Shown here piece by piece: positions 36,226 to 49,784 of a DNA stretch of 64,000 bases. Position 1 is the first letter of the stretch; every line of letters starts with the position of its first letter. Below the pieces are notes generated by a model, which saw only the letters and a list, made by a program, of their open reading frames with translations, was not told the DNA's origin and ran no database searches. The stretch comes from a bacterium (GTDB lineage Bacteria > Patescibacteriota > Minisyncoccia > Minisyncoccales > CG1-02-41-26). The DNA lies in the NCBI GenBank assembly GCA_030648255.1, contig JAUSHZ010000007.1:24404-88403 (forward strand). Direction: 5' to 3'. The position numbers were made by a program, and so were the translations under genes.

Positions 36226-36552
36226 TTAAACTCCCAAATCCCTTTTCTTCTCCTCAAATTCTTTTTTATCTATTTCACCTTTCGCGTATCGTTCTTTCAA
36301 AATCTCAAGCGGAGATTTTTCATGCGCGCCATCGCTATGGTTGTGTCCGCACATATGACCCTTTCCAGAACCTCCTCTTATTAAAGCTATAATCCCCCAA
36401 ATTATGAGGCCCCAAAAAACCAGCATAAAAATCCAACCGAATCCGCCAAAAGGCGTAAATCCAAAATTCATCATACCTTGCGCAAGGGAGAAAGTCGGCA
36501 AAACAAAACTTAAAATAAAAATAAAAGTTGTGATAAAAAATATTTTTTTCAT
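36226..36552 (-). CDS. Membrane protein with C-terminal SHOCT domain
   Basis: 108 aa; two TM helices, then LEILKERYAKGEIDKKEFEEKKRDL. Confidence 0.7.
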   Translation of the reverse strand: MKKIFFITTFIFILSFVLPTFSLAQGMMNFGFTPFGGFGWIFMLVFWGLIIWGIIALIRGGSGKGHMCGHNHSDGAHEKSPLEILKERYAKGEIDKKEFEEKKRDLGV

Positions 36553-36562
36553 AAATTTATTG

Positions 36563-36955
36563 TTATCTAAACCACTCCTTTAAACTTTTTGGAATTTCCA
36601 ACAGATATAAAAGCGCCAACGGCGCGCCGATATTGGCAAATCGTTCTACAAAGTCCCAAATGGGTTCTCCGGCTATTGGCCGAATAAGCGCGGTGGCAAA
36701 TGCCCAAAACGTCATCCAGAGCAAAGCTATTCTAACTGGTTTTATCAGAATTAAAATGGCAAGGGCTATATCTAAAGCGCCGATAAGCGGTAAAAGAGTA
36801 ACGGCGGTATCCGCCGAAATGCCCACCGAAGTAAAATAAGGAATCCAGCCTTGCTTTGCTTGCAAGCCAAATACGCCATGGCCGATAAACTCGCCAGCCA
36901 CGGCTACCCGCAGAATCCATTCAATTTTTTTAGAGTTTTCCATATTTTTATTCAA
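36563..36955 (-). CDS. Small integral membrane protein (DoxX-like guess)
   Basis: 130 aa with 4 TM helices. Confidence 0.55.
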   Translation of the reverse strand: MNKNMENSKKIEWILRVAVAGEFIGHGVFGLQAKQGWIPYFTSVGISADTAVTLLPLIGALDIALAILILIKPVRIALLWMTFWAFATALIRPIAGEPIWDFVERFANIGAPLALLYLLEIPKSLKEWFR

Positions 36956-37282
36956 TTAACCGAAAACTAAAACTTTATCCGAGTCCTCGACCATTTTTAG
37001 CAAGTCGGGCATCGTGGAAACAGGACACACCTTGCTTTCCTCTTTGCCACGAACTTTTAGACAAGTTCCGCAAGCATAAATTTCACCTTTTGACTCTTTA
37101 AACTCCGCCACTTTCATGGATATGTCAAAATTCTCGCTGTCTGGAATAATATCAAGTTCTGACCCCTCGTTCATTAAAAAAATTTTCACTTGATGGCTTG
37201 CTTTTAAAGCGGTAATTCCAAAACGAAATGTATTCCACACATGTTCAGGTTTATTTGATTGCAAGATAATACCGAGTTTCAT
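36956..37282 (-). CDS. DsrE/DsrF-like family protein
   Basis: 108 aa; MKLGIIL..FLMNEG..ACGTC pattern. Confidence 0.6.
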   Translation of the reverse strand: MKLGIILQSNKPEHVWNTFRFGITALKASHQVKIFLMNEGSELDIIPDSENFDISMKVAEFKESKGEIYACGTCLKVRGKEESKVCPVSTMPDLLKMVEDSDKVLVFG

Positions 37283-37863
37283 AATTTAATATGTTGTTTT
37301 GATTCTTTTATAATTTTAACCGAAAAATATAAAACCAATCCAGCCATTCCCATTCCAACGATTATATCAGGCCACATAGAGTTGAAGTAGCCAACCAAAA
37401 TTCCAGCTCCAATAACGCTGATGTTTCCATACACATCATTTCTGGAGCAAATCCAGGCAGACTTCATATTTATGTTTTTATCTCTATATCTTGTTAGAAG
37501 GAAAAAACATACGACATTGGCTACAAGGGCCAAAATACCAATCAGCGTAATAGTTTGCGCCGATGGAACTACTGGATAAAACACTCTATAAAATGATTGC
37601 CAAAGAACATACAAACCTACTGTAAGCATTATAACACCTTTTATTAGAGACGCCCTCGCTTGGGTTTTATGGTTTTTAGATAAAACAAATAAACTAAGCC
37701 CGTACACAAACGCGTCCCCAAACATATCCAAAGAATCAGCGATCAATACATTAGAGTGAGCCACTATTCCGCTTGCCAATTCAGTAAAGAACATCCCGGC
37801 GTTGATAAAAAAAGCTACATAAAGCACCCACTTTATCCTCGGCTCTATATTACAGCAATCCAT
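37279..37863 (-). CDS. Cation diffusion facilitator, membrane domain only
   Basis: 194 aa; SNVLIADSLDMFGDA motif of CDF TM2; no cytoplasmic C-terminal domain. Confidence 0.7.
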   Translation of the reverse strand: MDCCNIEPRIKWVLYVAFFINAGMFFTELASGIVAHSNVLIADSLDMFGDAFVYGLSLFVLSKNHKTQARASLIKGVIMLTVGLYVLWQSFYRVFYPVVPSAQTITLIGILALVANVVCFFLLTRYRDKNINMKSAWICSRNDVYGNISVIGAGILVGYFNSMWPDIIVGMGMAGLVLYFSVKIIKESKQHIKL

Positions 37864-37867
37864 AATT

Positions 37868-38800
37868 TTAGAATATTATAAATTTTTTAATCTCGGTTCT
37901 GTAAACACGGTATGGCTTGGGCCCTACGAAAGCTTTGCCATTGATAAAAACTGTCGGGGTGCCATAGAGATGGGTTTTTTGCAGCTGTTCGAGCTGATAC
38001 TCTACTGCGTCAACGGTTTCTGAATTATTAAGGCATTGATTAATTTTATTTACATCAAACTCAAAATTATCCAAGATTCTTTCCATATAATCCTTGCCAT
38101 AAATTGCCACTTTATCTACTGTAAATAAATAATCGTTAAACTGCCAAAATCGTTCACCATATTCTTTATACACGCAATATCCAATCTCCGACAAGTAATT
38201 TGTGGTTTCTTTAGCGGGATAGTGGGCAAAAGTATAATTGGTTTTTTGTTCTTTCACTAATTTTTGAATATCGGGATATGCCTTTCGAGTATAGTCACAC
38301 TCATAACACCCTATTAAAACAACTGTATTTTTTGAACCGATATTTTTAGTTGGAAAACTTGATAAATCTACATTGTCAAGAGTTACATTTTCCTCTTTCT
38401 TTTCTACCTCCGGGCACTGAACGTTAATTTCAGTCACTTTATTGTTTTCGCCTTTTGGGTCAAAAGCGCAAAAACCGCTTTGGTTGAGGCCATTACAGCT
38501 GCCATAAAGATAATAATTATATCCGCCTTTTACCACCCAAAAAGTGCTGGCTACCATTAAGATAAGAAATGCCCAGGAAAAAACTTCAAAGTATTTATTG
38601 AAAATACGAGCGGCAAAAACAGACCTGTTTAACAGTCGGGCGACTAATTGACTTTTTATTTTTTCATTGAATCCGGTGTTGCACGGACGGAGTGTTACTC
38701 TTCTAAATACGCAGTCTAACGCCTCTTTAGCTAACACTCGGTGCGTAGCGCTGAAAATTCCGAGTATAGAAAATACAATCAAAGCTATAATACAAATCAT
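37868..38800 (-). CDS. Membrane-anchored DsbA/thioredoxin-fold oxidoreductase
   Basis: 310 aa; N-terminal TM region with paired Cys, and a C-terminal Trx fold with CYEC and GTPTVFING. Confidence 0.7.
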   Translation of the reverse strand: MICIIALIVFSILGIFSATHRVLAKEALDCVFRRVTLRPCNTGFNEKIKSQLVARLLNRSVFAARIFNKYFEVFSWAFLILMVASTFWVVKGGYNYYLYGSCNGLNQSGFCAFDPKGENNKVTEINVQCPEVEKKEENVTLDNVDLSSFPTKNIGSKNTVVLIGCYECDYTRKAYPDIQKLVKEQKTNYTFAHYPAKETTNYLSEIGYCVYKEYGERFWQFNDYLFTVDKVAIYGKDYMERILDNFEFDVNKINQCLNNSETVDAVEYQLEQLQKTHLYGTPTVFINGKAFVGPKPYRVYRTEIKKFIIF

Positions 38801-40005
38801 AATATTTTAATTATTTTATTGAATGTTTCAATAAAAATTTTTGCCTCATCCATAGTATTATAAAAATACAAAGACACCCGAGCAGAATTTTTAATCTTTC
38901 TATCATTAAACCAAGAATGGACGCAATGCTGGCCAGACCTAATCATTACATTGGACATCTCATCTAGTATTAAAGTGGTCTGGTGCATATCCGTACCATC
39001 AATATAAAAAGAAATAATGCCCGACCTTAAAGCCGAATCGCTAGGGCCAATGATTTTAATTTTTGGAAATTTGCTTATTTCTTCGGTAATATAGCGATTT
39101 AGTTTCAACTCCTGCTCTCTTATATTATCAAATCCTATGGCTTCAAGGTACTTAATCGCCTCGCCAAGCCCTATAATTCCAGCGTAATCCTGAAGTCCGG
39201 CCTCAAATTTTTCTGGCGATTGCAACATTTTGTGGTCAGTATAAGTAGAATATTCTACTGTGTCTCCCCCAACCATAAATGGTTCTAATTTTTCAAGTAA
39301 GTTATATTTTCCATAAAAAACACCTGTGCCAGTCGGCCCCAACATTTTATGCCCAGAAAAAGCCATAAAATCAACATCTAAATCCCTTACATCAATTTTT
39401 TTATGCGGAGCGCTTTGCGCCGCATCCAAAAATACTAAAGCGCCATTTTCGTGGGCAATTTTAATAATTTCTTTAGCTGGAATTGTCGCGCCATCTAAAT
39501 TTGAAGTGTGAACCATTGACACCAATTTTACCCCCCTTACCAATTCTTTGTACTTTTCAAAATTAAAAACACTGTCGTCGTTTGATTTGACTATCTCATG
39601 ACGAATTCCTTTCTTCTTAATCAATACTTGCCACGGAATCAAATTGGAATTGTGCTCCTTGTCGGTAGTTAAAACCAAGTCCCCGTTTCTTAGATCTAAT
39701 GAGTTGGCTAACAAATTGATTCCTTCGGTGGTGTTTCTCGTAAAAACGATTTCTTGTTCGTCAGCGTTAATAAACCTGGCAACTGCCTGTCTCGCTCCTT
39801 TTATTTTCTTTGTAACCAATTCGCCTAGACGATGCGAACTTCTACCCGCACACGCTGGAAATTCAAAATAATATTCGTTCATCGCTTCAATAACCTGCCT
39901 CGGCTTCAAGCTCATACAAGAACTGTCAAAATAAATTATCTTTTTATCATTTATCTGCTTACTCAATAATGGAAAATCATTTTTAATTTTTTCGTAATTT
40001 AACAT
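38797..40005 (-). CDS. Cysteine desulfurase (SufS/CsdA-like class V aminotransferase)
   Basis: 402 aa; PLP-lysine SGHKM and active-site RSGQHC. Confidence 0.85.
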   Translation of the reverse strand: MLNYEKIKNDFPLLSKQINDKKIIYFDSSCMSLKPRQVIEAMNEYYFEFPACAGRSSHRLGELVTKKIKGARQAVARFINADEQEIVFTRNTTEGINLLANSLDLRNGDLVLTTDKEHNSNLIPWQVLIKKKGIRHEIVKSNDDSVFNFEKYKELVRGVKLVSMVHTSNLDGATIPAKEIIKIAHENGALVFLDAAQSAPHKKIDVRDLDVDFMAFSGHKMLGPTGTGVFYGKYNLLEKLEPFMVGGDTVEYSTYTDHKMLQSPEKFEAGLQDYAGIIGLGEAIKYLEAIGFDNIREQELKLNRYITEEISKFPKIKIIGPSDSALRSGIISFYIDGTDMHQTTLILDEMSNVMIRSGQHCVHSWFNDRKIKNSARVSLYFYNTMDEAKIFIETFNKIIKIL

Positions 40006-40017
40006 TTTTTACAGGAT

Positions 40018-42660
40018 TTAGCTCATTTTGCTCAAGCGAGCGAAGAGAAAGAAAATTAAAGTGAATATTATGGCCATGGCAAACGGGGCTACACTAGAAA
40101 GCCAGTTGCGTTTGTTTGGCTTAAAGCCACGCAAAAATAATGAATTAGAAACCACCGAAACCGAGCTCAAAGCCATAGCCAGGCCTGCCAATTCGGGTTT
40201 TAAAACAATGCCCAGCCCCACCAAAACTCGAGCCGCAATTGGAATGCCCATTACATTATAAAACAAAGCAAAAAACATATTTTGTTTTATTTTGCTCATT
40301 GTTTCTTTGCTTAACTGTATGGCAGTTAACACATCTCGCAAATCATCTTTGATTATCACAATGCCCCCTGCCTCCATTGCCACGTCTGTGCCACTGCCCA
40401 TAGCAATGCCCAAATCCGCTTGGGCTAAAGCTGGAGCGTCATTTATGCCATCTCCCACCATTGCCACTTTAATACCTGTATCTTGCAATTTTTTAATTTC
40501 ATTGGCTTTATCTTGAGGCAGAACTTCAGCTAAAACATTTTTTATGCCAGCCTGTTTAGCGATAGCTTGGGCTGTTCTTTGATTGTCCCCTGTTATCATA
40601 TAAACGGCTATGCCTCTTTTTTGTAATAAAGAAACTGTTTCTGCTGATGTTTCTTTAATAGTGTCAGCCACCGCCACCAATCCCAAAATTTCCTGGCTTG
40701 AAGCCAAGATCATTACGGTCTTTCCTTCTTCTTCTAAGCGTTTCATCTTTCTTTCGATGCCTTCCACTTTAAAGCCAGCGATATCCATAATTAACTTACG
40801 ATTGCCCAAATAATATTTATTAGCATTGATAACTCCCTCAACACCATGCCCGGGAATTGCTTTAAAATTACTTGCTTCTTTTATAGTAATTGCCTCTTCT
40901 CCTGCGTATTTAACAATGGCTTCAGCTAATGGATGTTCGGATAATTTTTCCAAGCTTGCTGCTATAGCGATAACTTCGTCTTCGTCAATTGAGGTAACTC
41001 CAACAATATCTGTAACCTCTGGCTTGCCTTTAGTTAAAGTGCCTGTTTTATCAAAGACAATCGCCCTTACTTTACAAGCCGCTTCCAATGGCTCCCCTCC
41101 TTTAATTAAAATACCGCTTTCAGCGCCCTTGCCAGTTCCTACCATAATAGCGGTTGGCGTGGCTAATCCCAAAGCACAAGGGCAGGCAATAACAATTACC
41201 GAAGTAAATGCCATTAAAGCAAAACTCAAGCTAGAACCTAATATAAAAAACCAAATTAAAAATGTTAAAACAGATATTCCCAAAACAATAGGCACAAACT
41301 TAGCGGAAATTTTATCAGCCACCGCCTGAATAGGGGCTTTAGAGCCTTGGGCGTCTTCAATTAAGCGGATAATTTGCGCTAACGCAGTTTCTTTGCCAAC
41401 TTTAGTGGCTTTAAATTCAAAACTGCCATTTTTGTTAATAGTGGCGCCAATAACCATATCCCCAATATTTTTTTCTTTGGGAATGCTCTCCCCTGTTAGC
41501 ATTGACTCGTCCACCGATGACTGGCCTTTAACAATAACACCGTCAACTGGAATTTTTTCACCCGGCCGAACCACCACAATATCCCCTGCCATTACTTGGT
41601 CCACTGGAATATCAACTGTTGAACTGCCACGAGTCACTCGAGCTGTTTTTGGCTGCAAGCCAACCAGCTTTTTAATGGCTTGAGAAGTTCTGCCTTTGGC
41701 TTTTGCCTCAAGAAACTTTCCTAAAGAAACAAAAGTAATTAAAAAAGCGGCTGTTTCAAAATAGAGTTCTGGTATTTTGGCGCCAGCCAATCCGATTACA
41801 GAATTATTTACAACAATATAATTAATAAACTGCCACAAGCTATAGAAAAAAGCGGTGCTGGTGCCAATGGCAATCAAACTATCCATATTAAAGGTTTTCA
41901 TTTTCAGCCCGCTCCAAAACCCTTTGTAAAATCCCTTGCCAATAATAAACTGGACAGGCAAAGTTAAAATTAAAGAAATAATGCCAATGTAGGGTAAAAA
42001 AGCAACGCCTCCCGGTAAGAACTTAAAAAAGTCCAAGAACATAAAGTAAAGCATTGGGGCAGACAACACTGCTCCCCAGATAAATTTCCTCCACAATGAT
42101 TTTATATGCTTTTCTTTGTTAGCGCTTTCTTCCTCTGTGTTTGCCTCCTCGTGTACAGATGCTTTATAGCCAGCTTTATTAACAGCAGAAATTAAATTTT
42201 CAACTGAAGAAACCGAGCTATCAAAAATAACCCGGGCTTTTTCCGCGGCAAAGTTAACCGAAGCGGTTTTAACCCCAGGCGTTTTTTTAATTGCTCTTTC
42301 AATAATACCTGCGCACGAAGCGCAATGCATTCCGCCTAAAATTAAGCTAATATGTTCTTCTCCTTTGCTTTTTGTTGAAGAGGAATCTGGCAATGAGTCG
42401 TGATGGGGCATTTGAGGTGGCTGCAGAACAACCCCAGAGCTAATATTTTGGGTTGATTTAACATCCCCAGAAAAAATACTGAACAACTGGCTAATTTTTG
42501 AAGAGTGAATTAAATTTTCAACAATTTTATCAATGTCTTCTCGGCCTTGGGGCACCTCAAACTCGCCTTTTTTATAATGCTTAACCTTACCTTCAAAATT
42601 TGGAATGTCATTTTTAGAAGAAAAGCTACCTTCTGCTTCCACCATTGACTCCACCTTCAT
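40018..42660 (-). CDS. copA: Copper-translocating P1B-type ATPase
   Basis: HMA GMHCASC, CPC, DKTGT and GDGINDAP. Start set at MKVESM (42660), downstream of the copZ stop; the ORF-track start overlaps copZ. Confidence 0.9.
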
Positions 42661-42676
42661 TTTAAAAGGCGCGTCG

Positions 42677-42970
42677 CTATTTACCGTTTTTTTTTTCCAG
42701 AGAAATTTGCGACTCTTCATTGGCGCTGTTATTGCTATTGTTTTGATTGCCCTCTTCGTTGGCAATCTCTGCTTTATAGCCAGCTTTTTCTATTGTCTGT
42801 AAAACAGCTTGCTCGCTAACAAGACCGCTGTCTATTTCTAATTCCCCAACTCCAGATGTAGAATCTATTTTTATATTGCTTACCCCTGGCAATTCGCCAA
42901 GCTCCATAGTGATAATTTTTTCACAAGAAGCGCAGTGCATACCGCTAATTTTTAGAATTATTTTTTTCAT
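42677..42970 (-). CDS. copZ: Copper chaperone (HMA domain)
   Basis: 97 aa; [11 protein letters not shown], then an Asn/Glu-rich tail. Confidence 0.8.
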
Positions 42971-42983
42971 AAATTTTTTTTGT

Positions 42984-43211
42984 TTAAATCCATATCTTAA
43001 AATTTTGACCCAAAACCGCTAAAGCAAAATGAACGAGAAAGAACACTACTGCCAAATAAATAATCTTTTTGTGGTATTTTTGGGCTAAATTGAAAAATTT
43101 ATTTCTCGCCAGCCGTAAATTGCAACAGCAGCCCAAAAAGCTAAGAACGAAAAATATGCCTGTTAGCATGCCCGACCAATAAACCAAGCTTTTATCAAAG
43201 ATTGTTATCAT
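42984..43211 (-). CDS. Small membrane protein with CCC motif
   Basis: 75 aa; 2 TM helices and LGCCCN. Confidence 0.5.
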   Translation of the reverse strand: MITIFDKSLVYWSGMLTGIFFVLSFLGCCCNLRLARNKFFNLAQKYHKKIIYLAVVFFLVHFALAVLGQNFKIWI

Positions 43212-43215
43212 TGCA

Positions 43216-43644
43216 TTATTTCACTATCAACTTGCCTTGCATGGCTCTATGCCCTTCCCCGCACATATTAGTACAGTACCAAGAAAATTCTCCAACCTGG
43301 TCTGCTGTAAATTCTAATACTTCATTACCGCTTATTCCCAAGTCCGGAATTCTCATCCCATGAAGGACATCTGTATTCTCTATATTAATTTTTATTTTTT
43401 CGCCCTTTGTTGCATTAATAACATTTGGCTCATAGCCAAACCGAAACGCTTTTATACTTACCTCTCTTGGTGGCTGTTCTTTTCCTTTTTGAACTTCTTG
43501 TTGAACTTCTACCGGCTTTTTTTCTAAAGCCAAGTTAGTATTGGCTGTCTTGGGGATATTTCCTTTTAAAAGTGATAAAAATGCTATTCCACCTATAAAA
43601 ATAATTCCCACCACAGCTGAAATAATTTTTTGATTTTTTGTCAT
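43216..43644 (-). CDS. Membrane-anchored cupredoxin with CuA-like site
   Basis: 142 aa; H..(40)..CTNMCGEGHRAM fits the C-x3-C-x3-H-x2-M pattern. Confidence 0.75.
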   Translation of the reverse strand: MTKNQKIISAVVGIIFIGGIAFLSLLKGNIPKTANTNLALEKKPVEVQQEVQKGKEQPPREVSIKAFRFGYEPNVINATKGEKIKINIENTDVLHGMRIPDLGISGNEVLEFTADQVGEFSWYCTNMCGEGHRAMQGKLIVK

Positions 43645-43670
43645 ATGTTTTTTTTCTTTAAATGATTTGA

Positions 43671-44504
43671 TTAAAAAAGATTAGAAACTTGCTCAATATC
43701 GGCCTGTTCTATAATTATTTTACCATCTTGTAATTGTAAATTGGGGTTTATTGGCCCGGGATTGCACCCGCCCTTTTCTGTGGCGATTTTTTCTATAGGA
43801 TAGCGATTGCCACAATTATTGCAAACAATTTCATCTCCTTCTTGGCGGAATCCTTTTCGCTCTCCGAAACAAACTTGGCAAGCATCTGCGGCGGCTCGAT
43901 AAACTCCTTTCTTATCCTTAATCACAAAAAAACGAACTATCTTCCCATCAGGCATCTCCACATTATAAAAACGAGCTTTGTTATCATTAAATTGCGTGGC
44001 TTCCAACCTAATTTCTTTGTTCTCAAAAACCACTTTTTCGCCCTTTTGGCCAAAAAAAGATTTTTCTGTTTGAACTTGAACTGCAGGCAAAGAAACAGAT
44101 GTGGAGGACGGTTGATTTTCAGCTTGATAGCCATCGCCTACCGGGCAAGAAAGCAATTCTTTTATTTCATCAAAAGTTCTGTAGCCCTCATAAACTTTTT
44201 CATTAATAATAAAAGTGGGCACCCCTGTAAACTTATAGCGAACAGGGCCCACAGAGGCATTTATTTTATTTATCTTAATGCCTAACCCCTCTATTTTCTC
44301 CAATGTGCCCTCTGATTTTACTTTATTACACCATTCACAGCCGTCAAGATAGTAAAAAGTTATTTCTTTAATTGCGCAAATAGAAGAAGCATTGCCTCCT
44401 TGTTTTCCCTGCTCTCCTGGCTTGGCAAAAAGAAAATAACCAGCCATAGCAACTGCCACAGCCACAATAATAATGCTAATAATAAAATTTCGTTTTATTT
44501 TCAT
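43671..44504 (-). CDS. Membrane-anchored thioredoxin-like + DUF2318-like Cys-rich domain protein
   Basis: 277 aa; CEWC Trx-like motif and C-terminal CQVC..CNNCG..GGCNP cluster. Confidence 0.6.
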   Translation of the reverse strand: MKIKRNFIISIIIVAVAVAMAGYFLFAKPGEQGKQGGNASSICAIKEITFYYLDGCEWCNKVKSEGTLEKIEGLGIKINKINASVGPVRYKFTGVPTFIINEKVYEGYRTFDEIKELLSCPVGDGYQAENQPSSTSVSLPAVQVQTEKSFFGQKGEKVVFENKEIRLEATQFNDNKARFYNVEMPDGKIVRFFVIKDKKGVYRAAADACQVCFGERKGFRQEGDEIVCNNCGNRYPIEKIATEKGGCNPGPINPNLQLQDGKIIIEQADIEQVSNLF

Positions 44505-44507
44505 AAA

Positions 44508-45482
44508 TTATTTCAACAAACTATCAATGGCTTCTTTAAAGGTGGCGTAAGGCAATGCTCCGCTAATTAACTGACCATTTATAAAAGTAGCTGGCGTGCC
44601 ATCCACTCCTTTTTCTTGGCCTTCTTTGGCATCGGCTTGAACTTTTTGAGCGTATTTTCCAGAATCAAGACAGTTATTAAACTGGCTACTCTTTAAGCCC
44701 AAATCACTGGCCCATTTTTTGAAATTTTCAACGCTATAACTGCTCTGGTTTTCGAATAGTTTATCGTGATATTCCCAAAAGCCGTCTTGTTCGCTAGCAC
44801 ACTCTGACGCTTCAGCCGCTTTTTGAGCGTATTGATGAAAACCCAAAGGAAAATGCTTATAAACCAACCTTATTTCTTTTGGATATTCTTTTTGTAACTG
44901 CTTTAAAGTTTGATATTGCTTTTCGCAAAATGGACACTGAAAATCAGAAAATTCCACCAAAGTAATATTAGCATTTGAGTTGCCTCTAATATGGTCGTCT
45001 TTGGTAATAGTAAAGGTTTGTACTGTTTGGGCGTCTTGAATGATGCCCGCATCTTGAGCTTGTTTTTGAGGTAGATTGTTATTTTTTGCAGAATCCGCTT
45101 TTGCTTGCAAAGATGATTGCTTATACGAAACGCTAAAAAATATATTTAATAACAAAAAAACAGCTACCCCGCCCGCTAAAAGCCCTTTTAAAAAGGACTT
45201 GGAAAAAGTAGGCGTTGCATTTTGACCATCTGCTTTATCTTGGCCATCGCTATCGCCAAGTTCTTGGGCTTGATAATCTCCCGCTTTTTTAACAGCGTCA
45301 AAAATGCCTTGCTTTTGTATTTTTGTTTTATCATACATAACCAAGCCGGAATTGGATTCAAAATCAACTTTGGCCTCAATAACTCCATGCTGTTCTTTCA
45401 ATTCTTTAGTAATTAATTGAACGCAAGCATTACAGCTCATTCCTCTTATTTTAAAATTTATTTTATTCATATGATTTAGCAA
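44508..45482 (-). CDS. HMA domain - TM - DsbA-like thioredoxin fusion
   Basis: 324 aa; GMSCNACV (HMA), one TM, CPFC and GTPATFING. Confidence 0.75.
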   Translation of the reverse strand: MLNHMNKINFKIRGMSCNACVQLITKELKEQHGVIEAKVDFESNSGLVMYDKTKIQKQGIFDAVKKAGDYQAQELGDSDGQDKADGQNATPTFSKSFLKGLLAGGVAVFLLLNIFFSVSYKQSSLQAKADSAKNNNLPQKQAQDAGIIQDAQTVQTFTITKDDHIRGNSNANITLVEFSDFQCPFCEKQYQTLKQLQKEYPKEIRLVYKHFPLGFHQYAQKAAEASECASEQDGFWEYHDKLFENQSSYSVENFKKWASDLGLKSSQFNNCLDSGKYAQKVQADAKEGQEKGVDGTPATFINGQLISGALPYATFKEAIDSLLK

Positions 45483-45494
45483 TATAACCTTGAT

Positions 45495-47045
45495 TTATTT
45501 CCCGCCACAGCTACTACCACCTCCCCCCCCACAGCCACAGCCCTTAGCCCCAGACGGGACAACATCCGTATTATTTACAGCGATATTAGCATTACCGCTA
45601 TTTCCGCTTGGAGCTGAATTTACATCCACCACCTCCATAATCCCCGAAACCATTCCCATCCAGCAGGAAAATTTAAACTTTCCTGTTTTTTTAGGCGTAA
45701 ACTCTTTAACACTGGTTTGCCCGGGAGTTAAACCAATCTGCCCGCTAAATAAACTATTAGAGATAACCGCATTAGTACAACCGCTTGTGCCTTTGTCAGT
45801 AATTTCCCATCTAACTGGCACGCCAACCCTTACTTTAAAATAATTAGGACTATACCCCGAAGAAGAAGCGTCCATCTTTATCACCTGCTTGCCATCTACA
45901 ATTGCCGGCAAGCCCTCTTCGTTATTGCTATTATTATTTTGAGTTTTGTTGCTTGCTGATTGAGTTGTCTTGCCAAGAAAATCGCCAATACCCGAATAGC
46001 CCAAAACATTCATTTGGTTATTGGCATTAAATAGGGCAAAAAATAGAACCACCACTCCAGCTGTTTTCAAAAACCTTTCTGATAACTTCCTATTGTTTAC
46101 AAGCTTAGCGCTAGAAAGCCCAATAAACAACAAAACCGGCAAAGTTCCCAAAGCAAAGGCCAACATAATTAAACTGCCTTGTAAAAAACTCCCGGAAATT
46201 AAAGCCAAGCCCTGCGCGGTTATAGTGAACCCGCAAGGCAAAAAGAAAGTTAAAGCGCCCATTACAAGAGGCATATATTTGCCCTTAAAATTTTTCTCGT
46301 TAGCCACATAGCGAGTCATTGACTTTGGCATAGTTATCTGGAAACGCTGAAAAGCCTTAACCCCTATCATTTGCAAAGCCAAAAATAGCATTAAAACCGA
46401 AACCCCTAAAACCAAAAGAGCCGAAAAGCTGGGCGATAATTGCAGCTTGCTTCCAATAGCGCCTAATATGCCTCCCAATAAAGCGTACGAAACTAAACGG
46501 CCAGCATTAAACATTAAATGAGGAGTTGATTTTTGCTTGTTGCTTCCGCCTGCGTAGGCCTCATTCCATTGTTTGGACATAGAAAGCACTAAACCCCCAA
46601 CCAAGGCCGCACAAGTAGAAAGCCCAGCCAACAGCCCAAATAGCATAAAAGCTGGCAAGGAAGATTTCTCGCCCACATTAACCCATCTTGAAAGCCCTAA
46701 TTTATTTAAAAATAGAAACCCTAAAAATACGAACGCCCCTATCACAACAGCCATGATAATATTATAAGAGCTGTTAGAATTTTTTTCTTCCTCGCCACGC
46801 CGAACCCCCGCAGGGACGGAGACGGTTTTTTCTTTTTCCGAAAAAATATAACCGTCTTTTTCAAATAGCTTATTCAAATGATGGGCAGAGGGCTTTTCGC
46901 CTGTATATTCAACTAAAACCTCGCCCCTTTGGTTTGATGCCTCCACTGCTTCTATGTTTTTTTCTTCAAGTAATTTTTTCTCAATTAAAATTTCACAGCT
47001 CGCACAATGAGTTCCCTTAACGAAATATTTTTGTTCTTTTATCAT
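45495..47045 (-). CDS. HMA domain - DsbD_2/TauE-like permease - cupredoxin-like domain fusion with Gly/Cys tail
   Basis: 516 aa; GTHCASCE, polytopic core with STCA and FFLPCG, C-terminal FSCWMGMVSG beta domain, and tail GCGCGGGGGSSCGGK. Confidence 0.7.
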   Translation of the reverse strand: MIKEQKYFVKGTHCASCEILIEKKLLEEKNIEAVEASNQRGEVLVEYTGEKPSAHHLNKLFEKDGYIFSEKEKTVSVPAGVRRGEEEKNSNSSYNIIMAVVIGAFVFLGFLFLNKLGLSRWVNVGEKSSLPAFMLFGLLAGLSTCAALVGGLVLSMSKQWNEAYAGGSNKQKSTPHLMFNAGRLVSYALLGGILGAIGSKLQLSPSFSALLVLGVSVLMLFLALQMIGVKAFQRFQITMPKSMTRYVANEKNFKGKYMPLVMGALTFFLPCGFTITAQGLALISGSFLQGSLIMLAFALGTLPVLLFIGLSSAKLVNNRKLSERFLKTAGVVVLFFALFNANNQMNVLGYSGIGDFLGKTTQSASNKTQNNNSNNEEGLPAIVDGKQVIKMDASSSGYSPNYFKVRVGVPVRWEITDKGTSGCTNAVISNSLFSGQIGLTPGQTSVKEFTPKKTGKFKFSCWMGMVSGIMEVVDVNSAPSGNSGNANIAVNNTDVVPSGAKGCGCGGGGGSSCGGK

Positions 47046-47088
47046 ATGTTTTTAGCTTTAATAACATTATTACAACCAAAAACAAATT

Positions 47089-47622
47089 TTATTCCACACC
47101 ACAACTTCCTCCCGCTTGGCCGCCACCCCCAGAACAGCCACAGCTTGGCTGTGGTTTAGTTTCTTTAGGTAAAGAACAAATATGGCTAGTTGAGCAGCCA
47201 CAGCCACATTGATACAGCGGAGAAATAATTGGAATATTATTTACTTGGACATATTCCATTATTTTTTGGTGAAAAGGGGTTAAGAAAACCGCCAAGCTCA
47301 CCATGGCTATAGATATTAAAATAATCGTTAGGCCCAGCAATAAGGGCTTTTTATAAAAAGCAGGAAATTTTTTAGATAAAACCCAGGCCAGCACCACAAA
47401 TAAAGCGACTGCTAAAATTATGGCTATTAAAAAAGGAGAGTAGCCCTTTACCTTTAAAGCAAATCCAATAAAGCTGGTGCCAAAAACCGCAAAAACCATA
47501 GCAACGATTGCCAGAAAAAGCAAAGCAATCGCCTGAAAAACAAACAGTGCTTTGGGCTTCATTTTAACTTTGCCCGCTTTTATTTTCTCTATTACTTTTT
47601 GGGAAATATTATTTGTTTGCAT
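47089..47622 (-). CDS. Putative anti-sigma factor / membrane protein with Cys-Gly-rich C-terminus
   Basis: 177 aa; overlaps the sigma gene by 14 nt. 4 TM helices, then CGCGCSTSHIC..CGCSGGGGQAGGSCG. Confidence 0.55.
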   Translation of the reverse strand: MQTNNISQKVIEKIKAGKVKMKPKALFVFQAIALLFLAIVAMVFAVFGTSFIGFALKVKGYSPFLIAIILAVALFVVLAWVLSKKFPAFYKKPLLLGLTIILISIAMVSLAVFLTPFHQKIMEYVQVNNIPIISPLYQCGCGCSTSHICSLPKETKPQPSCGCSGGGGQAGGSCGVE

Positions 47623-48205
47623 ATATTTTTCCGCCAGAGGCGGATCCGCCTTTGGCGGAGGCGATTTCTTTTATGGCTTCTTTGGCTCTTTTAATTCGAA
47701 CGCCAACCGTGGCTATGGGAATTTTTAACACCTCGGCTATTTCTTGATAAGACAGTTCCTGAAAATAATAAAGTAAAATAACTTCTTTTTGCTTAAAATT
47801 AAGCTCGTTAATAAATTCTTCTATTTTTGGAGGAAATAATTTTTTTTCTGCTTCATTTTCAATATCTTCTTTGTCAATATTATAGCGGGGTAAAAAAACA
47901 TCAAAATCAAATAAAGGCAAGGGCTTTTTCTTTTTTAAATAATTTACAGTTTCATTGTGGGCAATTCTATAAACCCAAGGAGAGAATCTTTGTTTGGTAT
48001 CAAATCCTTTAATATTTTCAAACGCTTTTAAAAAAACATTTTGGGTAATGTCGTTTGGCTCATCTGGACCCTGCACCATTCTTCTAACATATTTTTTTAT
48101 CTTATCTTGATATTTCTCAATCAAAAAACCAAAGGCCTCCACATTGCCCTGCTGAGTCAACAGCGCCAATTGCTCGTCTGTTTTTCCCAAAAACTCCTCC
48201 ATCAT
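47609..48205 (-). CDS. ECF-type sigma-70 family factor
   Basis: 198 aa from MMEEFLGK; region 2 (FSPWVYRIAHNETVNY) and region 4 HTH (LSYQEIAEVLKIPIATVGVRIKRAK). Confidence 0.85.
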   Translation of the reverse strand: MMEEFLGKTDEQLALLTQQGNVEAFGFLIEKYQDKIKKYVRRMVQGPDEPNDITQNVFLKAFENIKGFDTKQRFSPWVYRIAHNETVNYLKKKKPLPLFDFDVFLPRYNIDKEDIENEAEKKLFPPKIEEFINELNFKQKEVILLYYFQELSYQEIAEVLKIPIATVGVRIKRAKEAIKEIASAKGGSASGGKIYANK

Positions 48206-48215
48206 ATTATTACAA

Positions 48216-48956
48216 TTAAACACCCTTTTTATTACTAACCCACAACATCTCAAACACCTGCTTTTGCATCTGGCTAAATTCCGCATTTTCAATAACCACG
48301 GCCAAAAACTCTTTTTGCTTGCCCGATACCATTATAACTTTTTCATTATAAATAAACATTGTAGCTGAAAAAGAAAATTCTTTTGGTAAAAACCTAATTT
48401 CTCTCAAGCCCTTTTTCCCTTCGCTGACTCTTGCTTGAACTGATGGTGTCTCAAAGTCCAGCCAACGCAAAAAAACGCCTTGCTTTATTCGTTTTTGTGT
48501 CCAGCTTTCTTCGTATTGCTCGTCAATATGTTTTTTAAAATTTTCATAAGAAGCAATCCCGAGTAATTCTTTTGGCTTTTCTTTTAAGATGTTTCCATAA
48601 ACTGCTAAATAGCCTTCTTGCCCCTCAAAAAATCTCACTTTGGGCTTGTTGCCTGTTATGTTGTAAATCGATTTTAACTCTGGCAAGGACTCTTTAAACA
48701 TTTGAGCTCGCCTGTCTGCTATTTGCCCCAAAATTTCCGGGCTTTCAGCCACTAAGAATGTTTTAGCTCCTTTTTTAATTTGGCTAATAATGCCCTTTTC
48801 TTTTAAGCCATCGATGGCCGTATAAACAGTGGTGCGCCTAACCCCCGACTTTTTGCCCAATTCTTGCACTGTGGCCTGACCTAATTCCAAGGCCGCTAAA
48901 TAAACCTTTGTTTCATTGTCGCTCAAACCTAATTGTTTTAATGTTTCTATTGACAT
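48216..48956 (-). CDS. TrmB-family transcriptional regulator
   Basis: 246 aa; N-terminal wHTH LGLSDNETKVYLAALELGQATVQELGKKSGVRRTTVY. Confidence 0.8.
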   Translation of the reverse strand: MSIETLKQLGLSDNETKVYLAALELGQATVQELGKKSGVRRTTVYTAIDGLKEKGIISQIKKGAKTFLVAESPEILGQIADRRAQMFKESLPELKSIYNITGNKPKVRFFEGQEGYLAVYGNILKEKPKELLGIASYENFKKHIDEQYEESWTQKRIKQGVFLRWLDFETPSVQARVSEGKKGLREIRFLPKEFSFSATMFIYNEKVIMVSGKQKEFLAVVIENAEFSQMQKQVFEMLWVSNKKGV

Positions 48957-49115
48957 ATTTTTTTATTATATTATAATTATATTAGAGCTGGCAATAATAG
49001 CTTTTAGGAGACCACGAGGGTACCCTCCGCGCATGTGGAGGTCTTAATACTTGTGGTAAATCCTAGGAGACGCCACTCTATAAAAATCATCTCTTTTGAG
49101 GTGTTTTTTATTATT

Positions 49116-49784
49116 TTATTTTTTGTTAAATTCTTTCCAATAATCTTTAAATAATTCTTGTGAAGCAATAATATTACTGTGTAAAATTTCATAAAACTTT
49201 TTTCCAAATGGTCGGTTAGTGTAATAGCGATATAATGCCCCGCAAATCCAGTCGGCAATTTGTATATTAGAATCAGTTGCAGAATCAACAGTATTTACAT
49301 AAACGCTCGCTTTTTTAGATAGTTGCAAGATAATATGCAAACGCAAGTTTTCTTTAAATTCTTTTTGTGAAACTTTTTTCAAACTTCTATGGTCTAAATT
49401 AAGAATAATTTGTGGCTCTGCGTTAGGAAAAATAATATCAAGAGTTTTAGCTATTATCTCAGTATAAAGACGGCCCGACTCAACAGCGCTTTTTCTTCTA
49501 AATTCCAAAGGAATATTTTCTGATTTTAGAAAAGAATAAAAAATACGGATATTTTGTTGAGCTAAATATAATAGTGTTTCAGCGCGCAATTTATCAGTTA
49601 AACGAGCATCGGTGAACTTAACTTCCCTGCGGAATTTAAGTTTTTTGTTAGCAAATTTTGCGTCTTGCCACTTGCGAAACGCTTTGGCAGTGGTTCGTTG
49701 ATTGCCAATAATAAACCCGCCGACTATGAAAAGTTTTTCTTTATCACCTTGAAAATTACCAGATTCATCAATAAAAATATACAT
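49116..49784 (-). CDS. DUF3800 family protein
   Basis: 222 aa; MYIFIDESGNF N-terminus and C-terminal ..IQIADWICGA. Confidence 0.7.
   Translation of the reverse strand: MYIFIDESGNFQGDKEKLFIVGGFIIGNQRTTAKAFRKWQDAKFANKKLKFRREVKFTDARLTDKLRAETLLYLAQQNIRIFYSFLKSENIPLEFRRKSAVESGRLYTEIIAKTLDIIFPNAEPQIILNLDHRSLKKVSQKEFKENLRLHIILQLSKKASVYVNTVDSATDSNIQIADWICGALYRYYTNRPFGKKFYEILHSNIIASQELFKDYWKEFNKK

Follow-up and report, generated by a model that had tools for sequence, protein, structure and literature searches.

What does a long run of copper-binding and thiol-redox genes do in a bacterium of the Patescibacteriota, and is it one system or several? The question is raised by a 64,000-nucleotide stretch of contig JAUSHZ010000007.1 (assembly GCA_030648255.1, positions 24,404 to 88,403 of the forward strand; "the window" below always means this whole stretch), in which an island of such genes runs on the minus strand from 48956 to 36226. 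Our analysis indicates that the island is a variant of the copper-efflux locus whose parts recur in uncultured bacteria and have none of them yet been studied functionally. An ordinary cop locus has expanded in this lineage from three genes, as in the related locus L002 (L-numbers are the labels of our comparison loci), to about 15 through the addition of recurrent accessory modules, and the result is probably transcribed as one unit. At its heart is a fusion protein, here called the anchor, and on balance we lean toward a reading in which the expanded locus carries out copper efflux, the anchor relays or captures Cu(I), and further proteins maintain thiols outside the cell, all as a single unit.

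The island consists of 16 open reading frames (ORFs), where the initial annotation had counted about 20 genes and had overlooked a DoxX-like gene of 130 amino acids (36563–36955). The gaps between them are at most 43 nt and there are four overlaps. The shared orientation that had been stressed is real but uninformative, since the minus strand holds essentially every gene from 0.6 to 52 kb of the window, neighbours included; the real support for the unity of the island comes from its tight spacing and from its recurrence in other genomes. No terminator-like hairpin was found in any intergenic gap of the island, and a scan of the island for sigma-70 promoters did not rise above chance (40 sites against 37 expected). 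Each of the earlier domain assignments was reproduced by Pfam, NCBIfam or PDB searches, and the view that the cluster is linked to copper is borne out by a CopA with the full P1B-1 Cu+ signature and by the company of CsoR, CopZ and CopA that the anchor keeps across genomes.

The gene on which most of the argument turns is the following:

45495 to 47045, minus strand: anchor protein, 516 amino acids; HMA domain, a transmembrane (TM) helix (TM0), CcdA-like six-TM core, CupA-type cupredoxin domain and Cys/Gly tail

Pfam recognizes DsbD_2 (3.9e-33), HMA (2.9e-7) and Cupredoxin_1 (4.9e-7) in this protein, and many of its homologues also match PF02683 DsbD_TM; its closest named relatives are from Patescibacteria. 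The core has the six TM helices of CcdA and DsbD, with one conserved cysteine each in TM1 and TM4 (Cys145 and Cys271). In 19 homologues the HMA CxxC, these two membrane cysteines (in the contexts S[ST]CAALVGG and FFLPCGF) and the cupredoxin Cys, Cys, Met and Met are invariant, and a PSGAxGCGCGGGG..CG tail closes most of them. The cupredoxin domain matches CupA of Streptococcus pneumoniae (PDB 2mry/4f2e, phmmer 9e-7) with the Cu(I) ligands aligned, these being Cys423 and Cys461-x-Met-x-Met (kept in 19/19 homologues), and it also matches the cupredoxin metal-binding domain of S. pneumoniae CopA (4f2f); Foldseek places the AlphaFold model of the domain on 4f2e with a TM-score of 0.88 and a root-mean-square deviation of 1.7 Å. 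With the whole anchor model the top 50 Foldseek matches were to cupredoxins only, with no CcdA or membrane-domain match among them. Since the cupredoxin is of the CupA type and not a redox cupredoxin, a copper relay is at least as likely for the anchor as disulfide chemistry.

A crude hydropathy scan undercounted the helices of polytopic proteins, so secondary structure from AlphaFold2 (AF2) was used in its place. The AF2 model of the anchor has 7 TM helices (pLDDT 62), and by the positive-inside rule its K/R-rich loops fit an HMA domain inside and the cupredoxin and tail outside. The HMA domain is predicted to be cytoplasmic and the cupredoxin to face outward, which would put the two ends on opposite sides of the membrane. 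In this the anchor departs from the CupA type: its cupredoxin is the C-terminal domain of a 7-TM protein and is predicted to be outward, and its partner CopA has HMA domains.

The fusions in the island had been thought unusual, which in frequency they are not. Anchor homologues give more than 5,400 matches; all of the top 120 (52–100% identity; from Patescibacteria and Actinobacteria) have HMA and DsbD_2, and 113 have the cupredoxin too, while an HMA-TM-DsbA fusion like that of the neighbouring gene (below) is found in roughly 85 of the top 120 matches for its 324-amino-acid query. Two short peptide patterns alone place anchor relatives in at least 384 species genomes. We surveyed by tblastn the neighbourhoods of the 80 best anchor loci, 42 of them with enough flank. 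In 40 of these 42 loci CopA follows the anchor within 8 kb, and a CsoR-like gene of about 90 amino acids is directly upstream of the anchor in 34 of 71 loci and present in 60 of 80; in Actinobacteria CsoR, a DUF2318 protein, the anchor, CopZ and CopA are found together. The accessory genes of the island are scarcer: anywhere in the 80 loci there are matches to HMA-DsbA in 18, DUF2318 in 17, the thioredoxin (Trx) domain in 9, the SHOCT protein in 6, the CuA protein in 5, DsrE in 3 and the CCC protein in 2, and a Trx-fold or DUF2318 partner occurs in 14 of the 42 well-flanked loci. Three loci (L017, L020 and L034) have an accessory set that is almost that of the window. The rarer features here are the ECF sigma factor and Cys-tailed protein in the place of CsoR, the Trx/DUF2318/CuA trio, and the pairing of SufS with a membrane DsbA.

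The core gene set is thus common, but we found no description of it as a defined operon, and no functional study in the literature on DsbD_2 + HMA + cupredoxin proteins, on COG2836, on DUF2318 with copper or on Patescibacteria cupredoxins. The single mention that we found concerns the CsoR meta-regulon of gut Firmicutes, in which COG2836 (HMA + DsbD_2, some with DUF2318) and DUF2318 are predicted targets (PMC4938975).

In cultured Actinobacteria and Deinococcus there are distant relatives in which DsbD_2 and cupredoxin are joined and the HMA protein is encoded by a separate adjoining gene (annotated 'cation transporter' in Streptomyces); they lie on plasmids with metal-resistance genes. Those of Tsukamurella and Streptomyces stand beside P-type ATPases and separate, bona fide CcdA genes, with MerA and TlpA also nearby in Tsukamurella, and in Deinococcus a TauE-like + HMA pair lies near merB. 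On the Tsukamurella plasmid (L120; NZ_LR134469.1, 42223–55293) the DsbD_2 + cupredoxin gene has a P-type ATPase on one side and on the other a small HMA protein, followed by MerA and a multicopper oxidase; CcdA and TlpA are nearby. Mercury resistance was considered for the window itself and rejected: the NCBIfam matches to MerTP, MerP and MerA involve the HMA domain only and are far below cut-off, and the window contains no MerA or MerR gene.

The pump with which the anchor is so regularly found, and the HMA domain preceding it, are encoded here as follows:

40018 to 42765, minus strand: CopA, P1B-1 Cu+/Ag+ exporting ATPase with HMA domain
42677 to 42970, minus strand: CopZ-like HMA domain (HMA 2.2e-12)
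42687 to 42696, minus strand: A10 homopolymer on the coding strand, at the junction of HMA1 and the linker

CopA (E1-E2_ATPase 7e-62; TIGR01511 622 bits, cut-off 397) has DKTGT, CPC in TM6, Nx6YNx4P in TM7, Mx2SSx5N in TM8 and the CxxC of an N-terminal HMA domain, which make it a P1B-1 ATPase; this signature denotes Cu+/Ag+ specificity and does not separate efflux-type from assembly-type pumps. The initial annotation had listed CopZ and CopA as two genes, and although both domains are confirmed, they probably belong to one gene split at the A10 run, and no other homopolymer in the window is at least 9 bases long. The CopZ-like ORF and CopA overlap in different frames, and A9 in place of A10 would join them into a sequence homologous to the single-ORF CopA proteins of 967–985 amino acids in relatives. 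An independent Logan assembly with identical proteins (L001) has A9 and is in frame, and an HMA domain orthologous to the CopZ-like ORF is in frame with CopA in L017, L089, L053, L044, L094 and L059. It is most likely, from these comparisons, that the CopZ-like ORF is the first metal-binding domain of CopA, separated from the rest by a frameshift. Five relatives have A7–A9 at the same site inside one fused ORF, where one additional A would lead to a stop within 1–4 codons. The A10 tract could be a homopolymer error, a sign of population heterogeneity, or a slippage site giving free CopZ, and by analogy with E. coli copA, where a -1 frameshift is used (PMC5009743), the conserved poly-A tract behind the first HMA domain might likewise yield free CopZ.

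The window is chromosomal (it has ribosomal protein genes, EF-Tu and EF-G), and the island occupies a slot in which other genomes have other copper loci. The order in the window is Complex1_51K, BacA, tRNA-binding protein, methyltransferase, DUF3800, TrmB, ECF and so on to SHOCT, and thereafter HicB, LexA, restriction-modification (RM) genes, then Peptidase_M50 and, further on, S12, S7 and EF-G. In the same slot L002 has BacA, tRNA-binding protein, CsoR, anchor and CopA, with M50, S12, S7 and EF-G further on, and L089 has BacA, tRNA-binding protein, methyltransferase, ECF, membrane protein, anchor and HMA-DsbA, followed by LMWPc, Trx-CuA, a 75-amino-acid protein and CopA. As L002 and L089 hold other versions there, the slot between bacA and S12/S7/EF-G is a variable copper locus, and the window has its largest version among those compared. 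The suggestion that the GC and k-mer composition of the island might betray a horizontal origin found no support: GC and tetranucleotide distance match the rest of the window (z -1.8 to +0.1), giving no indication of recent foreign origin.

Between the anchor and CopA lie four accessory genes, three of which are predicted to bear on thiol chemistry or copper binding outside the cell:

44508 to 45482, minus strand: HMA domain, one TM helix and extracytoplasmic DsbA-like domain (CPFC), 324 amino acids (Pfam)
43671 to 44504, minus strand: Trx/glutaredoxin (Grx)-like domain (CEWC) and DUF2318/FtrD-like domain, membrane-anchored, 277 amino acids (Pfam FtrD-like 5.4e-30)
43216 to 43644, minus strand: mini-cupredoxin with CuA ligands, membrane-anchored, 142 amino acids (Pfam Cupredoxin_1/COX2)
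42984 to 43211, minus strand: two-TM protein with a CCC motif at the end of TM1, 75 amino acids

The likely true start of the HMA-DsbA protein is the ATG at 45470. It matches HMA (1.3e-9), Thioredoxin_4 (8e-30) and DSBA (1.7e-23), and in the PDB its DsbA domain matches actinobacterial DsbA (4pwp, 1e-16), BdbD (3eu3, 1e-15) and Salmonella ScsC (4gxz, 1e-11). The Grx/Trx-like domain of the 277-amino-acid protein is recognized weakly (NCBIfam YruB family, 5e-5), and PDB searches with this protein found no relatives. Its DUF2318 domain reads CQVC-x15-CNNC-x15-C and so has a motif of the type known from Campylobacter jejuni FetA, CxxC-x(13)-CxxC-x(14,15)-C (PMC6083913); in C. jejuni FetA is required along with the periplasmic thioredoxins FetE and FetF (PMC10783030). 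The island has no gene for an FTR1 permease, P19 or a FetBCD-type ABC transporter.

The mini-cupredoxin has a complete CuA ligand set (His95, Cys124, Cys128, His132 and Met135), with the five ligands aligned to those of the CuA domain of Thermus thermophilus ba3 subunit II (2cua/2lln, 4e-11) and kept in 24/24 close relatives, from Patescibacteria and Nanoarchaeota. It has a single TM anchor, however, where oxidase subunit II has two N-terminal TM helices, and it reaches only 43 bits with TIGR02866 CoxB (cut-off 148). In every neighbourhood examined, from Candidate Phyla Radiation (CPR) and DPANN genomes, its relatives adjoin Cu-type P-ATPases, and in both of the bacterial ones HMA proteins as well; no oxidase, NirK or cytochrome gene was found in the window or in the examined neighbourhoods. 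All three pairwise fusions of Trx, DUF2318 and CuA are found across genomes: Trx + DUF2318 in the window, CuA + DUF2318 in L017 (9732–10637, 301 amino acids) and L020 (4091–4975, 294 amino acids), where Trx is separate and about 125 amino acids long, and Trx + CuA in L089 (10001–10681; P0249, 226 amino acids). Because every pairing exists, there is strong genomic evidence that the three act together, and there is a precedent in the reduction of the CuA cysteines of CoxB by TlpA and Sco before metallation (PMC7558416). The CCC protein, for which Pfam and NCBIfam gave no significant match, has homologues at the same position in L017 (80%) and L085 (51%); L089 has a gene of equal length (75 amino acids) there, matched by length and place alone.

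Two further accessories of related copper clusters, absent from the window, were seen in L017 (8879–9388) and L020 (2743–3102): a polytopic membrane protein of 169 amino acids whose first helix contains a CPLC motif, and a secreted Cys-rich family of about 120–137 amino acids (CCINPPCTMCY...CPQCKKG), which is directly upstream of the anchor in three loci. In L086 (7001–7889) and L087/L088 (6470–7354) a CuA-type mini-cupredoxin is paired with a second Cupredoxin_1 protein of 160–169 amino acids and with a MarR-like regulator, beside a P-type ATPase and with no respiratory genes nearby; the cupredoxin protein of L087/L088 is recorded as Nanoarchaeia.

Beyond CopA, the right end of the island carries a different group of genes:

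38797 to 40005, minus strand: putative SufS-type (group II) cysteine desulfurase (Aminotran_5 7.5e-113)
37868 to 38800, minus strand: membrane DsbA-like protein with two TM helices, 310 amino acids, overlapping sufS by 4 nt (Thioredoxin_4 1.2e-9)
37279 to 37863, minus strand: CDF transporter, membrane domain only, 194 amino acids (Cation_efflux 2.9e-23)
36956 to 37282, minus strand: DsrE-like small protein with CxxC and one more Cys (DsrE 5.9e-10)
36563 to 36955, minus strand: DoxX-like membrane protein, 130 amino acids (DoxX_3 1.7e-4, below the Pfam cut-off)
36226 to 36552, minus strand: membrane protein with a His/Cys-rich segment and SHOCT (SHOCT 4.9e-10)

The SufS-like protein scores 436 bits with TIGR01979 (cut-off 475) and has the lysine that binds pyridoxal phosphate (SGHKM) and the catalytic cysteine (SGQHC); no SufBCD, SufE or SufU gene is adjacent to it. 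The 310-amino-acid protein matches Staphylococcus aureus DsbA in the PDB (4e-5), and the positive-inside rule predicts that its basic inter-TM loop with Cx9C is cytoplasmic and that the Cx8C after TM2 and the CYEC DsbA-like domain are outside. A metagenome scan with this protein found 30 loci, 26 of which have a SufS-like match, directly upstream in 25 and often with the 4-nt overlap seen in the window. The pair stands beside CopA in L094, L104 and L108, inside copper clusters in L036 and L109–L111, and beside a P1B-2-type ATPase (CPC, Nx7K, DxG) in L099; seven other loci have at or near the position of the L099 ATPase a similarly distant (36–42% identical) ATPase to which no type was assigned. 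In L094 (4461–10321) and L099 (5740–10872) a GILT-like Trx-fold protein precedes the pair. Almost all of the right half of the island is repeated in L094, which has CopA, SHOCT, DsrE, SufS, membrane DsbA and the short CDF, and from such arrangements SufS and the membrane DsbA look like a previously undescribed soft-metal stress module.

The CDF protein covers profile positions 1–194 of 198, has no C-terminal domain and reaches 76.8 bits with TIGR01297 (cut-off 82.35); the short form is conserved, since a homologue of 204 amino acids (66%) follows the SufS/DsbA module in L094. DsrE-like genes recur in or beside copper clusters in L019, L020, L078 and L094, and a relative of the SHOCT gene, besides its six occurrences in the survey, lies next to CopA in L094. 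The DoxX-like protein was found in none of the 80 related loci.

At the left end, the regulators and the sequences between them are:

48216 to 48956, minus strand: TrmB-family helix-turn-helix regulator, 246 amino acids, no Cys (Pfam TrmB 2.8e-15)
47609 to 48205, minus strand: extracytoplasmic function (ECF)-type sigma factor, regions 2 and 4 only (Sigma70_r2 1.3e-15, Sigma70_r4_2 1.2e-15)
47089 to 47622, minus strand: membrane protein of about 3 TM helices, 177 amino acids, overlapping the sigma gene by 14 nt
47046 to 47088, minus strand: intergenic element AATAAAATTTGTTTTTGGTTGTAATAA upstream of the anchor gene

The claim that the island stands under a TrmB regulator is doubtful. TrmB is likely co-transcribed with the cluster, but copies 95–96% identical are found at the same position in L007 and, in another context about 3 kb away, in L089; because it sits elsewhere in L089 it has no specific tie to the copper genes; what is conserved as a unit is the ECF gene with the membrane protein and the anchor. 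As a copper regulator we reject it: it has no cysteine, its position varies among relatives, and it is present in only one of the 80 surveyed loci. The ECF sigma factor is confirmed (TIGR02937 sigma70-ECF 104 bits, above cut-off); its ORF extends to a TTG at 48292, and the likely start is the ATG at 48205, 10 nt past the TrmB stop. It lies directly upstream of the membrane protein and anchor in L006, L007, L071, L089 and the window, and the gene before it differs (a tRNA-binding gene, a methyltransferase or TrmB).

The overlapping membrane gene had been called anti-sigma-like. The overlap stands, but the 177-amino-acid product has no Pfam or NCBIfam match and no recognizable anti-sigma domain (zf-HC2, RsiW-like). 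It has a short Lys-rich N-terminus and a C-terminal tail with 7 conserved cysteines (CGCGC...C...CGCS...C) that are kept in L006, L007, L071 and L089; the tail resembles that of the anchor. In an exhaustive search 416 representative clusters match its residues 1–138; the family shares the Lys-rich N-terminus, a three-helix membrane region and a PFHQ...SPLY segment, and most members are about 245 amino acids long with a different C-terminal domain, the Cys tail being confined to a small subgroup. Its gene overlap and conserved adjacency make it a candidate for an anti-sigma factor or for a sensor of copper. A tblastn search of the window with one Patescibacteria CsoR-like query, which is of weak sensitivity, detected no CsoR (best E 2.0), and we infer that the ECF factor and the 177-amino-acid protein stand in for CsoR as copper sensor.

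An element related to AATAAAATTTGTTTTTGGTTGTAATAA is also found just before the ECF start (48206–48216), so that the unit from 48.9 to 36.2 kb has two GTTGTAATAA elements, one before the anchor and one before ECF. The pre-anchor element is roughly 17–28 nt long (...GTTTTTGGTTGTAATAA). It precedes the anchor in L006, L007 and L071, and ECF in L006, L007, L071 and L089 whatever the upstream gene; both elements are missing from the CsoR-type loci L002, L017 and L020. The GTTGTAATAAT-type element has 7 matches against 2.2 expected (1 of 100 shuffles reaches 7), 2 or 3 of them at gene starts in the island, which is suggestive only. Visual reading of the upstream sequences showed no classical ECF promoter (GAAC...CGTC-type), a dedicated search not having been made.

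How might these parts work together? We favour a scheme in which cytoplasmic Cu(I) would be taken up by the HMA domains and pumped out by CopA, while in parallel the anchor, exchanging thiolate ligands, would hand Cu(I) from its HMA domain to the membrane Cys pair and on to the outward CupA-like domain and tail, as MerP/MerT in reverse; alternatively, its outward domain may capture the Cu(I) that CopA releases. The cytoplasmic HMA domain of the DsbA-like protein could tether or activate that protein at the export site in a copper-dependent way, and the DsbA-like and Trx-like proteins outside would maintain the proper redox state of envelope cysteines, including those that bind copper. The Trx/DUF2318/CuA trio may be self-contained, Trx reducing the cysteines of CuA in the way that TlpA and Sco act on CoxB, DUF2318 delivering metal or electrons, and the CuA mini-cupredoxin serving as a surface copper acceptor or one-electron redox site. 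SufS, the membrane DsbA, DsrE and CDF would form a second soft-metal stress module that combines sulfur mobilisation or Fe-S repair with cation efflux. Expression would be controlled by the ECF sigma factor in the place of CsoR, held by the 3-TM protein with its outward, copper-sensing Cys tail. The relay is supported by the metal-chaperone domains at both ends of the anchor, by the lack of Trx-fold clients at most loci, and by the plasmid relatives, which adjoin a small HMA gene, P-type ATPases and a separate CcdA.

A good deal weighs against this scheme. The topology of the anchor is drawn from a model of medium confidence (pLDDT 62) and from the positive-inside rule, and it is not obvious what would power export by a passive thiolate relay. 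A Trx-fold or DUF2318 partner is lacking at two thirds of the anchor loci (28/42), the CuA protein is found in 4 of the 42 and SufS with membrane DsbA in 1, and this scarcity of accessory genes means that the 15-gene assembly may be a loose aggregate. The scheme leaves the role of a CuA centre with no oxidase nearby unaccounted for; the frame break in copA could mean that the pump is inactive in this genome; and the 177-amino-acid protein, in which no anti-sigma domain is recognized, has about 24 cytoplasmic residues with which to hold a sigma factor. Moreover, since cysteines in TM1 and TM4 are a hallmark of CcdA and DsbD, the anchor could move reducing equivalents. On that view, essentially the model of the initial annotation, its core exports electrons from cytoplasmic thioredoxin and not copper; these keep its CupA-like domain and tail and the DsbA-like, Trx-like and DUF2318 proteins reduced, the clients repair or prevent copper-catalysed disulfides or reduce Cu(II), and the HMA domain only gates or senses. 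Much fits: the DsbD_2 match at 3.9e-33 and PF02683 DsbD_TM in many homologues, the exact CcdA/DsbD cysteine pattern, the joining of a membrane core to a beta-sandwich domain with a Cys pair as in DsbD and ScsB, and the fact that the island holds no other CcdA or DsbD. CupA, moreover, reduces Cu(II) via its cysteines in vitro (PMC7558416), and the coupling of copper handling to envelope cysteines has a precedent in Scs, which links copper and thiol redox (PMC10907172) and to whose ScsC the DsbA domain is related (1e-11). The coupling stands insofar as extracytoplasmic Trx-fold proteins have been recruited to the island, but it is weakened by the CupA type of the anchor cupredoxin and by the 28 loci at which such clients are missing. 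HMA domains deliver metals to transporters and are not known to donate electrons to CcdA; the Tsukamurella and Streptomyces plasmid relatives, beside a separate CcdA and a small HMA gene, suggest metal transport; and no CcdA appeared in the Foldseek top 50, though cupredoxin matches dominated that list. In our judgement, which is not a computed value, the thiolate-relay pathway for Cu(I) is somewhat more probable than otherwise and reductant export in the manner of CcdA or ScsB is possible but doubtful. The two are not mutually exclusive, and either is compatible with a role of the island in copper efflux, copper capture and the maintenance of cysteines outside the cell.

Two other explanations concern the island as a whole. 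It might not be one system at all but an array of three or four modules, each independent, that happen to be neighbours in a region with all its genes on the same strand (the ECF pair; the cop core with optional accessories; SufS/DsbA/CDF/DsrE; TrmB with DUF3800), with a specificity that may reach Ag, Hg, Cd or Zn besides copper. Each of these does occur apart in other genomes, SufS and membrane DsbA stand beside a P1B-2 (Zn/Cd/Pb-type) ATPase in L099, the island has a CDF transporter, distant anchor relatives lie beside MerA in Tsukamurella and MerB in Deinococcus, and all genes from 0.6 to 52 kb share the minus strand. We nonetheless think it unlikely, given the tight spacing, the overlaps and the lack of terminator-like hairpins in the island gaps, and given that SufS with membrane DsbA, and DsrE and SHOCT genes too, recur in copper clusters or beside CopA. 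It is still more improbable, in our estimation, that the cluster serves cuproprotein biogenesis or electron transfer and not detoxification, its purpose being to build and employ a CuA mini-cupredoxin that carries single electrons outside the cell (for instance to a nitrite reductase, a host or a mineral), with CopA and the anchor supplying copper and Trx/DUF2318 as assembly factors. The CuA ligand set is complete throughout the family, the trio parallels TlpA/Sco/PCuAC/CoxB assembly (PMC7558416), and a role in carrying electrons to NirK has been proposed for single-domain cupredoxins of Patescibacteria (PMC12931201); but the CuA protein accompanies so few anchors, whereas anchor and CopA together are nearly universal, and the oxidase, NirK or cytochrome gene that such a carrier might serve is missing both from the window and from the neighbourhoods of CuA relatives. 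The usual regulator of anchor loci is CsoR, and CsoR derepresses under copper excess. Nor does the signature of CopA, which is common to efflux-type and assembly-type pumps, single out the latter.

The island resembles a blend of a CsoR/CopZ/CopA operon, Scs and CuA assembly of the TlpA/Sco branch, and is a member of no accessory family. With the CsoR-CopZ-CopA operons of Gram-positive bacteria it shares a P1B-1 Cu(I) ATPase with HMA, and L002 has CsoR-anchor-CopA in the same slot; it differs in its ECF factor and Cys-tailed protein in the place of CsoR, in 10–12 extra genes, and in that CopZ is an in-frame first domain of CopA in its relatives. The anchor domain resembles S. pneumoniae CupA and the CopA cupredoxin domain in fold and in its Cys...Cys-x-Met-x-Met ligands. 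CupA, however, is a single-TM, cytoplasm-facing protein that gives Cu(I) to the CopA cupredoxin domain and is said to be limited to a few streptococci, whereas the anchor domain is widespread and predicted to face outward.

Like the Scs systems of Salmonella, Proteus and Caulobacter, whose ScsC and ScsB bind Cu(I), the island combines a copper-linked membrane protein of the DsbD family with DsbA-like and Trx-like extracytoplasmic proteins, one of which, as noted, matches ScsC structures. Unlike them it has no ScsA, no ScsD and no ScsB-type periplasmic domains, its host is presumably monoderm, the HMA domains fused to its proteins are on the cytoplasmic side, CopA is encoded in physical linkage with the set, and the nearest structural relatives of its DsbA domain are the oxidases MdbA and BdbD. 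The likeness to CcdA-TlpA-Sco/PCuAC systems lies in the CcdA-like membrane protein, the anchored Trx-like proteins and the full CuA site, and in the Trx fused to a CuA domain in L089; but oxidase subunit I is missing, no homologue of Sco or of PCuAC was found, and the CuA protein here is a free anchored domain of 12–15 kDa beside a Cu-ATPase. FetMP-FetABCDEF and FtrABCD (P19) systems likewise have DUF2318, with CxxC-x(13-15)-CxxC-x(14-15)-C, alongside extracytoplasmic thioredoxins, and the Ftr systems include a cupredoxin (FtrB); the island differs in having no FTR1, P19 or ABC transporter and a DUF2318 domain that has a single anchor and is fused to Trx or CuA. MerP-MerT and MerTP, finally, also combine HMA with a membrane protein having paired cysteines and soft-metal ligand exchange, and the plasmid relatives lie near MerA/MerB, but the anchor fold belongs to the LysE/DsbD superfamily and not to MerT, its HMA domain is cytoplasmic and not periplasmic, transport would run outward, and the pump beside it is specific for copper.

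Copper efflux operons are thoroughly familiar, but the anchor, which is the most frequent companion of CopA in Patescibacteria, is unstudied. It occurs at full length also in metagenome-assembled genomes of Actinobacteria, and HMA + DsbD_2 proteins are found in gut Firmicutes (PMC4938975). It joins a cytoplasmic HMA domain through a CcdA-like core to a predicted outside site of the CupA type, a type of domain earlier thought confined to a few streptococci. Genetic tests are feasible, since distant relatives exist in cultured Streptomyces mirabilis P16B-1, Tsukamurella and Deinococcus. The shuffling of Trx, DUF2318 and CuA also leads to a concrete hypothesis for DUF2318, a puzzling component of FetMP/P19 iron uptake in pathogens. 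Taken jointly, it is a speculative and rather unlikely idea that the HMA/CcdA-like/CupA-like proteins and their split plasmid versions are an unrecognised class of thiolate-relay transporter for Cu(I) (soft metals) and that DUF2318 is a dedicated partner of cupredoxin sites; if it were true, the transporter would carry metal between an HMA site in the cytoplasm and a cupredoxin site outside the cell, and DUF2318 would be a copper donor or one-electron relay, which would explain the role of FetA/FetEF and FtrD in P19-type iron uptake. For the CPR and DPANN the locus shows minimal genomes investing heavily in copper protection at the surface and keeping CuA-type sites with no respiratory oxidase nearby.

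Two neighbouring regions of the window deserve mention. Directly downstream of the island, the RM/LexA segment at 32–36 kb is the sole compositional outlier of the window (z = 3.5); between 33463 and 36155, where GC is low (0.30–0.32) and the tetranucleotide z has this value, lie genes for a DNA methyltransferase and a 279-amino-acid partner (an RM-like pair), LexA and a HicB-like antitoxin. At the other end, a region at 48983–49080 on the plus strand matches the Rfam family DUF3800-V RNA with 41.9 bits (gathering score 37.4); it is flanked by the start of TrmB and the 3' end of DUF3800, both of which are on the opposite strand. It has a perfect TTGACA-16-TATAAT promoter before it (48950–48977, plus strand) and a hairpin with a T-run after it (49088–49103, plus strand), and because of this promoter and terminator-like hairpin it looks like a discrete small RNA gene. 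At the same place L007 has a 108-nt stretch 85% identical to this region. DUF3800 (49116–49784), the small RNA and TrmB together form an insertion of about 2.1 kb relative to L089, between the methyltransferase and ECF genes; TrmB is 95–96% identical between relatives whose other proteins are 49–91% identical, and its position differs among them.

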